Of a DNA stretch of 49,911 nucleotides, positions 8,674 through 13,376 are shown in pieces. A model generated the notes under the pieces. It was not told the DNA's origin, searched no databases, and was given only the letters and a program-made list of their open reading frames with translations. The stretch lies in the sequence record PZ445414.1, one strand, 5' to 3'. Origin of the DNA: a phage. Numbering within the stretch: the stretch's first letter is position 1; each line of letters opens with the position of its first letter. Position numbers and translations under genes: made by a program.

Positions 8674-9064
8674 TCTCATGCTGGCGGCACGCAAGGCATT
8701 CGCCGCCGAATACGAAAACAGATACGCAATCGCCTATGAAAACGTGGAGTTTACGCCTCCTGGCGATGGCTCTATGTGGTTGGCGTTTCACTACGTTGAA
8801 TCTGAGCCGTTGAGGTTGTCGCTTGATCGAAAATGCGTTTCTTACATGGGGATGGTGCAAATAAATGTCACGTTTGCGCCTGGTACTGGAACAGACAAGC
8901 CGCGCAAGCTGGCAAAAGAGATTGCTGATTTTTTCAAAGATGGTAAAATGCTGGACGTGGGCTACATCTACGAGGGCGCTAGCGTCCGGTCAGTCCAGAA
9001 ATCAGAAACGGGCTGGATTGTTCCGATCCGGTTTGTTGTAAGAGTTGACACAAAAGGAGAATAA
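8663..9064 (+). CDS. tail terminator-like protein (putative)
   Basis: 133 aa; SD GAGGG; position immediately before major tail protein. Confidence 0.4.
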   Translation: MDYDLMLAARKAFAAEYENRYAIAYENVEFTPPGDGSMWLAFHYVESEPLRLSLDRKCVSYMGMVQINVTFAPGTGTDKPRKLAKEIADFFKDGKMLDVGYIYEGASVRSVQKSETGWIVPIRFVVRVDTKGE

Positions 9065-9065
9065 C

Positions 9066-9725
9066 ATGCATCTTCCAAACGGTTCACAGATTTTTATCGA
9101 AGCGTCTCGCGGCTCCGAGCTTTCCGCTAGCGCAATCAGCAACGCAGAAAAGCCAGTTTTCACCATGGCTGATACTGGCGATCTCGAAAAGGGTGATTAC
9201 GTAATTGTAACTGAGTCCTCTTGGGGTAAACTTCTTGATCGCGTACTGCGCGTTAGCGAGGTTTCCAGCAACTCAAGCGCAACGCTTGAAGGTATCGACA
9301 CCACTGATACCAACGTGTTCCCTACCGGAGCAACAGCGAAGATCGCAAAGATTAACGCGTGGTCTGAAATCCCTTGCGTCCAGGATCTTGCTCAGGACGG
9401 CGGCGAGCAGCAGTATTATACTTATCAGTGCTTGTCCGACGATCAAGAGCAGCAGTTGCCAACCTACAAGAGCGCCGTTTCCCTGACGTACACTTTTGCG
9501 CACGAGTACGACAACGCGATCTATCCTCTACTGCGCACCGCCGATGAAACTGGCGAAGTCACCGCAATGCGTATGTACGTACCGAAAGCGAAAGAAATGC
9601 GTTGCTGGGCTGGCGTGCTGTCATTCAACGAGATCCCGCAAACTGCGGTTAACGAAATGGAAACCGTCTCCCTTTCTTGCTCGCTGAAAGGCCGCTACAC
9701 ATTCCTTCCTGCATCACAGGGTTAA
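9066..9725 (+). CDS. major tail protein (putative)
   Basis: 219 aa from ATG 9066 (SD AAAGGAG); followed by strong terminator; precedes G/GT chaperone genes. Confidence 0.55.
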   Translation: MHLPNGSQIFIEASRGSELSASAISNAEKPVFTMADTGDLEKGDYVIVTESSWGKLLDRVLRVSEVSSNSSATLEGIDTTDTNVFPTGATAKIAKINAWSEIPCVQDLAQDGGEQQYYTYQCLSDDQEQQLPTYKSAVSLTYTFAHEYDNAIYPLLRTADETGEVTAMRMYVPKAKEMRCWAGVLSFNEIPQTAVNEMETVSLSCSLKGRYTFLPASQG

Positions 9726-9731
9726 TCACAA

Positions 9732-9755
9732 GGGGCGTTGCGCCCCTTTTTTATT
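9732..9755 (+). terminator. intrinsic terminator after major tail gene
   Basis: ggggcg ttg cgcccc tttttt. Confidence 0.75.
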
Positions 9756-9800
9756 TGATGTAATATTACCCCAACATTTAACCACTAAGGAGAAACACCA

Positions 9801-10115
9801 ATGGCTAAAATGAAATTGACTCTTGCCCCGCTTCCAGACTTCAAACTTCCAGTTAAATTTGTGTTGCCGGATGGTAGCGAGCAAAAAATTGTGTTTACCG
9901 TTAAGCATAAAAAGGCAAGCGAGATTCAAGAGCTTTACCAGAAAGAAGGTATTAAAGATCCTGAATTCATCATGAATGTTGCAGTAGGTTGGGATCTGGA
10001 AGAAGAATTCAACGAAGAAAACGCGCAACTGTTAGTTGATTATTATCCTAGCGCGGCGCTGGCTCTCATGGGATCTTATTTAAGCGCTCTGGCAGGGCAG
10101 CGAGTAAAAAACTAA
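9801..10115 (+). CDS. tail assembly chaperone G-like
   Basis: 104 aa between major tail and tape measure; ends VKN* with slippery A_AAA_AAC immediately before stop. Confidence 0.7.
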   Translation: MAKMKLTLAPLPDFKLPVKFVLPDGSEQKIVFTVKHKKASEIQELYQKEGIKDPEFIMNVAVGWDLEEEFNEENAQLLVDYYPSAALALMGSYLSALAGQRVKN

Positions 10116-10429
10116 AACGGGCGGTTTATCTGTACTACCAGAAGCCGCCCACAGATGCAGAGCTTGAGGCCGTAGGTTTAACCCGAGCAGACTATGAAGG
10201 AGAGGAACCGCCGGAAGTTATATTTGATGAATCAATGATGCAGTCATGGGATGTATTCTGCGCAATGCAGACTCAATGGAGATCTGCTGGTGGCGGCGCT
10301 TACGGACTTGATTACAATGTTTTGCCTATGTTGTTCAAAATCTATAAAATAGACGATGAAGAAATGGCATTGAACGACTTGCGGATCATGGAAAGTAAAG
10401 CGCTCGAAATGATGCACGCAGGAAAATAA
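9801..10429 (+). CDS. tail assembly chaperone G-T fusion (programmed -1 frameshift at 10106-10112)
   Basis: -1 frame is open from 10112 to TAA 10427-10429 (includes track ORF 10235..10429); canonical X_XXY_YYZ heptamer A_AAA_AAC. Confidence 0.6.
10106..10112 (+). other. -1 ribosomal frameshift slippery heptamer A_AAA_AAC
   Basis: heptamer aaaaaac spanning last codons of G ORF; stop codon follows directly. Confidence 0.65.
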
Positions 10430-10431
10430 AC

Positions 10432-10457
10432 GAGCGCCTTTTGGCGCTCTTTTCTTA
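10432..10457 (+). terminator. intrinsic terminator after G-T
   Basis: gagcgcc tttt ggcgctc ttttctt. Confidence 0.7.
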
Positions 10458-10472
10458 TCTGGAGGTAAATTA

Positions 10473-13376
10473 ATGGCAGAACAATACGCAGGTTTGACGT
10501 TAGGCGTTGACGTTCAGCAGGTAAACAACGCAGTTAAATCTCTAAGAGATTTCAAGACTGCCTCAGAGGGTGCGGCTGATGGTCTTGAGTCTTTCGTCAA
10601 TGAGGAGCAGATTGCCCGACAGAGAGCCAAAGATTTGGTCTCCGAGCTTGCAAAGCAGAGAAAGGAATTTCAGAGCGTACAGGCCGCAATAGATCCGACT
10701 GCGGCAAAAATGGAGCGACTAAAGGTTGCGGCGGCTGACCTTGATAAGCTTTGGAAAAAGGGAGTGGTTCCAGACGAGACATTTTTCCAGCTTGGAGAAA
10801 TGCTTGAGGCTCAGACAAACAAGCTTGCAGCAAACAGAAAAGCGTTAACTGCTGAGGGCATGGCGGCAATCGAGGAGTCAAAACAGAAAGCTAAAGCGGC
10901 GGCTGAGGCTAAGAAATTCATTGCGGCTCTTGAGGCGCAAGCGGCTGCGGCTGGTAAAACTCAATCAGAACTGATGGAAATGAAAGCTGCGCAGCTTGGT
11001 GTAAGTGCTCAGGCCGCGCCATTCATTTCACAGCTTAAAGCGCAAGAAAAACAGATGAAGTTAACCGGAATTAGCGCAGGGCAATATAACCAGGCTATGC
11101 GAATGCTTCCGGCTCAGATCACTGACGTTGTAACGTCGCTTGCTTCCGGTATGCCTGTTTGGATGGTTGCAATTCAGCAGGGCGGGCAGATTAAGGACTC
11201 TTTCGGCGGCATTGGTAATACGTTTAAAGCGTTGTTGTCGTTTCTGAATCCGGTAAACGTTGGCCTTGCAGCATTAGCCGTTTCAATGGGTGCTCTTGTT
11301 AAGGCTGGTTATGATGCGTATAAATCACAACGTGACTTGCAAGAGGCATTGGTTCTGACTGGTGGATACGCTGGCACAAGCGGCGCACAGTTTGATAAGC
11401 TGGCGCAGGACATTAATAACAGCACTGATGCGACGATAGGAAATATCCGATCCATCGCAACAGAGCTTGCAAAGTCCGGCAAGTTCACGATTGATCAGAT
11501 TAAAGCAATCACGAAAACCACCGCTCAGTGGTCAACTGTAACTGGTGAATCAAGCGACAAGATAACCGATTACTTTAATAAGATTGCCGGAGATCCGGTT
11601 AAAGGTCTTGCAGAGCTAAACGAGCAATTCAACTTTTTAAGCGAAGGGCAGTTAACTTATATTGCAGATCTTGAGAAAACGAAAAGCAAGACAGAAGCAG
11701 TAACGACGGCAACAAAGTTATTTGCTGATGTTATGGATCAGAGGTTAGCTGAACTGGCGGACTCCGCAACGCCATTAGAAAAGATGTGGACTGACATTAA
11801 AAAATGGGCGTCAGATGCGTGGGGTTGGGTTGGTGATCATACTCTGGCGGCGCTTAACCTGATCATTGACGTTGTAGCTGGAACGGTTGAGCAGGTTCGT
11901 TATTTGCTTAATCAGGGTGATATTCTCATTGGTGAGTTTATTGTATCTGCAACAAAGGCTATGCAAAAAATACCTGGTCTTGATGGCGTTGGTGACTCAG
12001 TAATTGCACAGCAACAGAATATTATCAATAACGCTAAGGAGAACAACAAGGAGCTATTAAAATCAATTGCCGAACGTAACGAGCGAGTCAAAAAAGGCGA
12101 GCAGGGTTACATTGACATGATGAAAAATCGTGCAGCGGTTGAACAGCAATATGCGACAAAAACAAAAGAGAATATCAGGAAGGAAGCCGAGGAATTAGCT
12201 AAGCGCGATAAAAAGCAAAAGGCTGAAAAAGCTAAGGTATCGGCTGGCGATAAGCTGGAAGAACAATATCAGCGTGATATCCTTGCGCTAGAAACTCAAT
12301 TAAGAGTTTTGAAAGAGCACAAGACGATCACAGATACCATAAGCCAGCAACGTAAATCTTTATGGGCTGAACAAGCTAAAATTCAGATTTTGCAAGAAGC
12401 CTCAACAAAACGGCAACTTACTGATGAAGAAAAAAGCATTTTAGCCAACAAAGATAAGATCCTAGCGATGGCTGAACAAAAAGCTATTTTGGGCGATCAG
12501 ATTGTTGCGCAAACGCGCCTTAATCAGTTGCAAGATAGCTCAATCAAGTTTATCCAGCAGCAGAAAGCAGCAACGGAAGCACTAGCAAAAACCAGAGGGT
12601 TAAGCGAGCGTGAAGCAGCAAGAGCGGCGGAACGTGCAAAGGTTGAATCTGATTATCTTGCTAAGGGAGGACAGAAAGAAGATCCGCAACTTAAAGCCAT
12701 GATGGATGCCTTAGACAACCGCTATAAAGAGGAAGATGCTAAACGTGCTGATTGGTTGGCTGGCGCTAAAAATGCCTTTGCGGAGTACGGAGAAGAAGCA
12801 ATGAACATGTATGATAATATCGGCAACATTGCGAGCCAGGCGCTAAACGGCCTATCGCAGCAAATGGCTGATTTTTTGACTACTGGACAAGCCAACTTCA
12901 AAGACTTTGCAAAATCAATCATTAGCCTGATTGTTCAGATGATCACAAAAATGGTTATCTTCAATAGCATTTCCGGCATGATGGGAGGCTCAACGTGGAC
13001 TATGGGATCTCTAATGAGCGGCTTCTCGTCTGGTGGGTACACTGGCGACGGCGGCAAGTATGATCCGGCTGGCATTGTTCACAAAGGCGAGTTTGTTTTC
13101 ACCAAGGAAGCAACGCAGCGAATCGGGGCGCGTAACCTTTACCGCCTGATGCGTGGATATGCCAACGGCGGCAGTGTTGGCGGTTCCGGTTATAGCAGGG
13201 CTTCAACTGGCGGCGCTGGACTTGCTTACTCGTTCGGTGATATCAACGTTGATATCAACAACGGAAACGATCCAAAAGGTCTTGAAACTGGTGTTAGAAT
13301 GCTGGTTACTGATATGCTCAAGCGTGAAATGGGTCAAGGCGGCAGCATTTACAATTTCGTTATGGAAAGGAGGTAA
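10473..13376 (+). CDS. tail tape measure protein
   Basis: 967 aa, long Ala/Gln/Lys-rich helical N-terminal region, hydrophobic segments, Gly-rich C-terminus; located between G/GT and M-L-K-I. Confidence 0.85.

Follow-up and report, generated by a model that had tools for sequence, protein, structure and literature searches.

We found that the phage analysed here very probably makes two tail assembly chaperones from one gene, a short protein G and a long protein GT, the latter by a programmed -1 frameshift on the slippery heptamer A_AAA_AAC. Gene order, domain content, coding signature, deep conservation and the joined-CDS annotations of relatives all speak for this reading. The original observation is correct, and a frameshift of this sort is ordinary and has been annotated before in this family of phages. 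For the G/GT paradigm it brings nothing new biologically; what is gained is a correction of the annotation, a downstream hairpin and the wide conservation of the slip cassette. Recoding specialists may take a modest interest in the fact that a weak shifter in E. coli is kept flush with the stop codon over very large evolutionary distances.

The window, i.e. the whole stretch of 49,911 nucleotides that was analysed, is the complete genome of Escherichia phage IsaakIselin (Bas10, MZ501077.1; Drexlerviridae, Tempevirinae, Henuseptimavirus), which was a 100% match to positions 9000-11000 in a megablast search. The window starts with the large terminase gene and is rotated by 533 nt, a window position being the MZ501077.1 position minus 533. 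The gene order is tail tube (Phage_tail_3), G (Phage_TAC_4), -1 ORF (DUF1799), tape measure (TMP_2) and then M/L/K/I/J-like genes. The tail tube protein, product of the major tail gene, is encoded at 9045/9066-9725 (Phage_tail_3, 2.5e-62) and the tape-measure protein at 10473-13376 (TMP_2 and Tape_meas_lam_C). The G/T pair sits between these two genes, which is the lambda-like location in the definition of Xu et al. (2004). Terminator-like hairpins with T-runs were found on the plus strand at 9730..9748, between the major tail gene and G, where it marks the upstream boundary of the G/GT cistron, and at 10432..10449, between T and the tape-measure gene. Counterparts of the first are annotated in Sazh and HK639, and counterparts of the second in Sazh, Shelby and T1. 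Rfam gave no match at the gathering threshold in the whole window, and its sub-threshold matches fell on the two terminators only. The Shine-Dalgarno sequence AAGGAG (9787..9792, plus strand), 8 nt 5' of the ATG of G, is the only ribosome entry site for G and GT alike, and the records of Sazh, Shelby and T1 also annotate one RBS for both products. Two minus-strand ORFs (9726-10028 and 10244-10417) were considered as genes and taken to be shadows of plus-strand genes because the codon-position signature fits the plus-strand frames.

Gene G (9801..10115, plus strand) encodes the tape-measure (tail assembly) chaperone as its zero-frame product of 104 aa and 11.7 kDa, which matches Pfam Phage_TAC_4 over its full length (residues 1-104; E=3e-37, 128 bits, cut-off 21.1). 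The surrounding sequence is ...CAG CGA GTA AAA AAC TAA AAC GGG CGG... and the protein ends V-K-N-stop; the original prediction had read the end of ORF 9801-10115 correctly as GTA AAA AAC TAA. The T segment (10112..10429, plus strand) consists of 105 codons in the -1 frame and the stop TAA at 10427-10429, and T residues 22-101 match DUF1799 (2.8e-13, 50.3 bits, cut-off 26). That the -1 frame is open from 10112 to 10429 was likewise confirmed up to this TAA. The frame is already open from 10052, the upstream stop being TAG at 10049-10051, and its overlap with G (10052-10115) measures 64 nt. The start coordinate 10091 that had been assigned to the frameshift region has no special meaning. With C10112 read twice, GT is join(9801..10112,10112..10429), a protein of 209 aa with the junction ...LAGQRVKN-LKRAVY... 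and the junction peptide ...AGQRVKNLKRAVY...; its computed mass is 23.8 kDa and not the ~22 kDa expected earlier. The conceptual fusion matches phrog_17368 end to end, over positions 1-210 of 213 (E=3e-114), so this PHROG family was built from fused products. No relative of GT with a solved structure was found in the PDB by sequence, and NCBIfam holds no model for G or T.

From these observations we infer the following course of events. Ribosomes would start at the single RBS and the ATG at 9801, and most would end at the TAA at 10113 to give G (104 aa). A small fraction would slip back one nucleotide on 10106-10112, tRNA-Lys re-pairing from AAA to AAA and tRNA-Asn from AAC to AAA, and would then read CUA AAA CGG ... 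in the -1 frame to give GT (209 aa). The slip is probably promoted by a 12-bp hairpin that begins 6 nt downstream; the zero-frame stop codon, on entering the A site, may have a modulating effect as well. If lambda serves as a guide, the tape-measure protein (10473-13376) would be coated by many copies of G and few of GT, the T domain would recruit the tail-tube protein (9066-9725), and neither G nor GT would stay in the virion. The claim of a tail chaperone G/G-T frameshift upstream of the tape-measure gene is backed by synteny, Pfam domains, PHROG 17368, the coding signature and conservation.

The slip cassette and its conservation

The slippery heptamer A_AAA_AAC lies at 10106..10112 on the plus strand and contains the zero-frame codons Lys AAA (10107-10109) and Asn AAC (10110-10112). 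Its position and its X_XXY_YYZ phase relative to G are as had been predicted, and it is the only in-phase heptamer within the overlap. The stop codon TAA of G (10113..10115, plus strand) is flush with the heptamer and accounts for the first three of the 6 nt that separate the heptamer from the hairpin. As a bare string AAAAAAC is not unusual: the window contains 19 copies, where 16.9 +/- 3.8 would be expected. The significance of the heptamer therefore rests on its position, phase and conservation. In-phase X_XXY_YYZ motifs occur at 0.32% of codons in 30 ORFs of at least 150 aa from the same genome. The chance probability is ~0.06 for such a motif somewhere in the 20-codon overlap and ~0.003 per ORF for one that exactly abuts the stop, an arrangement present in 0/30 other ORFs of at least 150 aa in this genome.

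The heptamer had been called a textbook slippery site, which holds for its form and for the ribosomes of eukaryotes. AAAAAAC is, however, a weak shifter in E. coli: frameshifting amounts to 0.16% when no stimulator is present, to 0.19% when the IS911 stimulators are added and to 0.74% in combination with the IS3 pseudoknot, compared with 0.29%, 4.3% and 39% for AAAAAAG in the same three contexts (PMC4066793 Table S3). The level of GT may therefore be well below that of lambda, where the G:GT ratio is ~30:1 (PMC5009743), unless the context stimulates the shift. A low level would be in keeping with lambda, which requires about 1 GT per 30 G of its chaperone.

We compared the cassette in ~100 distinct relatives, down to ~30% identity and including prophages of other Proteobacteria. 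The loci were taken from IMG/VR, from annotated phage records (each Drexlerviridae lineage from the tblastn spread as well as Dhillonvirus, HK639, a Ralstonia phage and Fuzzy_ER39), from phage T1 and from 15 bacterial genome or MAG contigs, mostly prophages in Proteobacteria (Lysobacter, Rhodanobacter, Luteibacter, Pseudomonas, Paraburkholderia, Pseudoxanthomonas, Xenophilus and Gilliamella among them). Two IMG/VR contigs with a broken frame (L093 and L103) were left out of the comparison. An apparent in-frame G-T fusion or truncation in IMG/VR locus L025 (= L092, same contig) was dismissed as well, since several single-base homopolymer deletions identify it as a product of assembly errors.

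Conservation of the slippery site in relatives had been named as a check on the original prediction, and we found X_XXA_AAC flush before the stop in nearly all of the ~100 relatives. The stop is TAA, TGA or TAG, and X is A, G or T, always as a triplet. Most relatives carry A_AAA_AAC, while G_GGA_AAC occurs in the Ralstonia phage and in loci L050, L053, L055 and L058, and T_TTA_AAC in two Pseudomonas loci (L054, L056). The residue encoded by XXA switches between Lys, Gly and Leu while X_XXA stays; it is therefore the RNA, rather than the protein, that is constrained. The third bases of the three slip-site codons were compared among 87 close relatives and are A (87/87), A (80/87) and C, with T never used at the last one (no AAT), whereas each of the five codons 5' of the slip site shows at least three of the four possible third bases. 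Among relatives, the two frames overlap by 10 to 211 nt. In Dhillonvirus, a -1-frame TGA lies directly 5' of the heptamer (GCG TGA AAA AAA CTA), and the shift is therefore possible only on the heptamer there.

A few lineages depart from this arrangement. Canonical heptamers are missing in Rogunavirinae (GCA AAG GTC TAA), in Webervirus (GCA AAA GTY TAA; a frameshift join is annotated in its member Shelby), in Fuzzy_ER39 (CAA AAG CAC TAA) and in the MAG contig L044 (GCA AAG CCC TAA). All four have only an A_AAG or A_AAA tetramer, located one codon (3 nt) from the stop. In the Gilliamella locus (L051) the heptamer stands one codon before the stop. Across the loci compared, the flush X_XXA_AAC-stop arrangement is kept far beyond the T1-like phages.

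Candidate stimulators of the shift

A stable hairpin that the original prediction had overlooked is predicted at 10119..10150 on the plus strand and starts 6 nt after the heptamer. It has 12 bp, a 2-nt bulge and a 6-nt loop, with GGGCGGUU-UA-UCUG on the 5' side, the loop UACUAC and CAGA-AGCCGCCC on the 3' side. The predicted free energy is -18.7 kcal/mol (z=-5.2), and 0/200 dinucleotide shuffles were as stable. Compared with synonymous recodings of the same T peptide, the hairpin is more stable than 99% (z=-3.1), and it is partly built from codons that are rare in the structural genes (CGG, 4/136 Arg; CCC, 1/98 Pro). In the near-identical Henu7 locus (L003) it ranks in the top 0.4% of windows. 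Other Tempevirinae, T1 and further Tunavirinae, and Vibrio phage Vc1 share this hairpin, and Dhillonvirus, HK639 and several prophages have hairpins that differ in sequence but keep the spacing. When the 45 nt following the stop were ranked among the windows of the respective locus, the median over 73 distinct sequences was the 3.8th percentile.

In most lineages a hairpin of unusual stability is seen 6-7 nt downstream of the heptamer.

A comparable structure is absent from Braunvirinae, Rogunavirinae, NBD2, L022 and L084, of which Braunvirinae and NBD2 keep the heptamer. RNAalifold predicted no pairs and hence no family-wide consensus for 29 Drexlerviridae sequences, and when hairpin pairs were counted across relatives, 78% of cells were paired with a covariation score no better than that of a slid control. 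Because some sublineages have no hairpin and neither a consensus nor clear covariation was seen, we think that the hairpin at 10119-10150 is likely to stimulate the shift in this lineage without being essential to the family.

Two further elements were tried and rejected. An H-type pseudoknot between the loop ATCTGT (10128-10133) and ACAGAT (10151-10156) shows no covariation, has a sterically implausible 3-nt loop 1, and its pairs 26:52 and 28:50 are broken in about half of the relatives. As to an SD-like stimulator, which would be expected 10-14 nt 5' of the heptamer, the sole candidate AGGG (10094-10097) lies 8 nt upstream and falls in a Gly codon that varies between GGG, GGC, GGT and GGA among relatives, i.e. 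it is unconserved.

We wondered whether the adjoining stop codon might be the main stimulator instead. The slip would then occur post-translocation, with the heptamer tRNAs in the E and P sites (or tRNA-Asn alone in the P site) and the slowly decoded stop codon in the A site, where release factors compete with the shift. The flush adjacency is found family-wide with all three stop codons, also in the sublineages without a hairpin, and it is atypical: the lambda stop lies 15 nt downstream, and the distance from heptamer to stop in SEA-PHAGES chaperones is 26 nt on average (PMC10885494). The adjacency is clearly selected, and it is unusual compared with lambda and the SEA-PHAGES chaperones. 'Shifty stops' are moreover an established concept (Weiss 1987, as cited in PMC5009743), and RSV and BYDV carry a stop at the same position. 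However, the HIV heptamer in E. coli behaved in the opposite way, at least as summarised in PMC4373837: a stop as the next codon lowered -1 frameshifting, and overexpression of release factor abolished it (Horsfield 1995). The adjacency could also merely reflect that GT needs to carry all of G, or that the overlap is minimised, and most lineages, including this phage, have a well-placed hairpin in addition. We therefore consider the stop as main stimulator to be a possible but rather unlikely explanation. The original prediction had cast the stop as the pause element; the adjacency on which this was based is strongly conserved, but a role in pausing is not established and the HIV-heptamer result cited above points the other way. 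Of the two elements, the hairpin is the better-supported stimulator and of the more conventional kind.

A broader proposal is that flush X_XXA_AAC plus stop forms a class of its own among bacterial -1 recoding signals, conserved since ancient times, to which the termination codon would be integral through competition between frameshifting and release once the heptamer tRNAs have been translocated. Such a class would span the Phage_TAC_4 family, with T1-like coliphages at one end and prophages of Xanthomonadales, Pseudomonas and Burkholderiales at the other. It would explain why a heptamer that performs poorly in E. coli is used, why it ends in AAC (never AAU or AAG) and why it has not drifted away from the stop. 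We put this forward tentatively and think it doubtful.

Coding of the T segment and alternative routes to it

Whatever promotes the shift, the programmed -1 frameshift has to be weighed against the deposited annotation. MZ501077 lists a 'tape measure chaperone' (bas10_0016) and, as a CDS of its own, a 64-aa 'hypothetical protein' (bas10_0017; 10235..10429, plus strand, start ATG 10235), and there is no joined CDS anywhere in this GenBank record. Many relatives also annotate a separate short ORF. If these annotations were right, T would be an independent gene of 64 aa starting at ATG 10235 and the heptamer would be coincidental. In the -1 frame, no ATG, GTG or TTG occurs from the stop at 10049 to 10235, which is the first start codon. 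No SD-like sequence is found at the usable distance of 5-12 nt 5' of ATG 10235, the nearest (GGAAG) being 17 nt upstream. The DUF1799 match begins 20 residues upstream of the Met at 10235.

The 39 codons upstream of this Met, T residues 3-41, also evolve as coding sequence. In a set of 87 distinct close relatives, pairs of sequences differ on average by 0.27/0.24/0.56 at codon positions 1/2/3 in T residues 3-41, compared with 0.31/0.19/0.48 in T residues 42-105 and 0.31/0.24/0.59 in G. T residues 3-41 hence vary in the same way as G, and the coding signature is present from the first -1 codon. At the protein level, the peptide L-K-R-A-V-Y-L-x-Y-Q-K-P-P-T-D-x-E-L is kept across relatives from the first -1 codon on, i.e. 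from the shift site. The annotated 'starts' of the short ORF in relatives are inconsistent, with locus offsets from 1146 to 1368, while the heptamer-stop cassette is kept at the nucleotide level over 30-100% identity. An independent T gene is therefore very unlikely, and bas10_0017 is the tail end of the T domain, comprising its C-terminal 64 codons, and no independent gene. We propose to merge bas10_0016 and bas10_0017 into one gene with two products, the longer being join(10334..10645,10645..10962) in MZ501077 coordinates. The same correction extends to many related records.

The -1 product could in principle arise by another route, namely slippage of RNA polymerase on the A6 run, which would put an extra A into some transcripts and give ...VKK-LKR... 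instead of ...VKN-LKR.... The site is indeed homopolymeric. Productive transcriptional slippage is generally tied to runs of about 8-9 or more, and A6 is below these lengths. Relatives carry GGGAAAC or TTTAAAC, with A3 only, at exactly the same place, which is compatible with tandem tRNA re-pairing and not with polymerase stuttering. Furthermore, the conserved in-phase X_XXA_AAC is a signature of ribosomal slippage. Although certain bacterial genes and IS elements are known to obtain -1 products by transcriptional slippage (PMC5009743), we consider it extremely improbable here. Products of the +1 frame or of readthrough were discarded, as they would add only 13-27 codons.

Comparison with known systems

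The closest counterparts of the proposed G/GT frameshift are the T1-type chaperones. T1, Citrobacter phage Sazh and Klebsiella phage Shelby have the same protein families, gene order and product sizes as the phage studied here. In T1 (AY216660, CPTT1_038/039; our locus L115), a joined CDS named 'tape measure chaperone, frameshift product' is annotated over the same cassette, which reads GCA AAA AAC TAA and is identical in AAAAAAC-TAA. Sazh, the G of which is 98% identical to that of this phage, is annotated with a frameshift joined CDS too, and both T1 and Sazh share the AAAAAAC-TAA cassette as well as the downstream hairpin. Shelby (Webervirus) has an annotated joined CDS but carries GCA AAA GTT TAA, without a canonical heptamer. 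A frameshift is also mentioned in the genome announcement of the T1-like phage Skenny (PMC6763657). In the searchable literature we found no experimental demonstration of GT in any T1-like phage. Compared with T1-type chaperones there is no difference of substance, save for the join that is missing from the record of this phage.

The gpG/gpGT system of lambda (Levin 1993; Xu 2004, 2013, 2014, as reviewed in PMC5009743) is alike in that it lies between the tube and tape-measure genes, in that the second ORF is in the -1 frame without a start of its own, and in that a heptamer is located near the end of G. Its role is presumably alike too: the tape measure is coated by G and GT, and the tube protein is brought in by T. 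The protein families differ, being Phage_TAC_2 and Phage_tail_T in lambda and Phage_TAC_4 and DUF1799 here, and no homology to lambda G/T was detectable (hhalign probability 0.07%). The pair described here is therefore a positional and presumably functional analogue of the lambda proteins and not a member of their sequence family. The signals differ as well: lambda uses G_GGA_AAG, an efficient heptamer in E. coli, with the G stop 15 nt downstream, whereas this phage has the weak A_AAA_AAC flush with the stop and followed by a hairpin.

Outside tail chaperones, IS1 InsAB' uses the same heptamer A_AAA_AAC in E. coli for a deliberately low-level fusion protein; it has no established stimulator, and its product is a transposase of unrelated function. 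With signals of the dnaX / IS911 type, our site shares a predicted stable stem-loop that starts 5-9 nt after the heptamer (a 6-nt spacer in this case). RSV and BYDV resemble it in the zero-frame stop directly after the slippery heptamer, but they are evolutionarily unrelated eukaryotic viruses that rely on strong downstream structures or long-range interactions. 'Shifty stop' sites, finally, have a zero-frame stop immediately 3' of the shift site, as seen here in AAC TAA.

Slippery sites and codons at the shift

In the Dhillonvirus Over9000, a -1-frame TGA adjoins the heptamer on its 5' side (chaperone locus L039, 1250-1263) and the overlap of the frames is only 10 nt. In this phage, the shift is thereby naturally confined to the heptamer. 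The Over9000 record does not assign a chaperone function and contains no joined CDS. The canonical heptamer was missing in Rogunavirinae, Webervirus, Fuzzy_ER39 and the MAG contig L044, in which all that remains is a tetramer (A_AAG or A_AAA), in phase and one codon 5' of the stop. The motifs read GCA AAG GTC TAA in Rogunavirinae (loci L035, L096-L101), GCA AAA GTY TAA in Webervirus (L037, L038, L121-L134), CAA AAG CAC TAA in Fuzzy_ER39 (L042) and GCA AAG CCC TAA in L044. Since the -1 frame encoding the T segment is still intact in the relatives that carry the tetramer in place of the heptamer, their sequences suggest single-tRNA slippage in these lineages.

We found that the first -1-frame codons past the shift (window 10112-10120) are CUA-AAA-CGG, with AGG occurring in some relatives. 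The Leu codon CUA as well as the Arg codons CGG and AGG are rare in E. coli. CUA is present because the overlapping stop forces it, and CGG because it is forced by the hairpin arm.

Annotation of the T segment and doubtful records

The GenBank record MZ501077.1 and the window represent the same complete 49,911-bp genome of phage IsaakIselin, the window being circularly rotated by 533 nt with respect to the record. The record does not contain a joined CDS, and the distal 64 codons of T are entered as a separate 'hypothetical protein', bas10_0017 (window 10235-10429, MZ501077.1 10768-10962). Many related records also annotate the distal part of T as a stand-alone gene, and their start positions disagree.

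In the IMG/VR contig L025 (identical to L092), the chaperone region displays several single-base homopolymer deletions compared to a near-identical relative, one of which falls in the A6 run and mimics an in-frame G-T fusion. We attributed these deletions to sequencing or assembly error and rejected a natural fusion. The frame is also broken in the chaperone region of the IMG/VR contigs L093 and L103.

The MAGs L044 ('Fibrobacter sp.', A_AAG tetramer) and L045 ('Peptococcaceae', AAAAAAC-TAA cassette) carry chaperone genes 50-56% identical to that of the enterobacterial phage IsaakIselin. The genes lie on contigs of 3.7-12.7 kb, which are probably of phage origin and mis-binned. Nineteen 'Campylobacter phage' records (host C. 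jejuni; among them MG065640, MG065641, MG065673 and MG065679) show ~78% identity to the IsaakIselin tail region, a level similar to that of Salmonella and Citrobacter T1-like phages. By sequence, these records look like Drexlerviridae contamination or wrong host assignment.

Terminator-like hairpins flanking G/GT

Neither tRNA genes nor Rfam families at gathering threshold were detected in window 1-49911. Intrinsic-terminator-like hairpins with T-runs are located after the tail tube gene (window 9730-9748) and before the tape-measure gene (window 10432-10449). The position of the G/GT cistron between these two hairpins suggests that transcription is attenuated stepwise from tube to chaperones to tape measure. 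The annotations of T1, Sazh, Shelby and HK639 include equivalent terminators.
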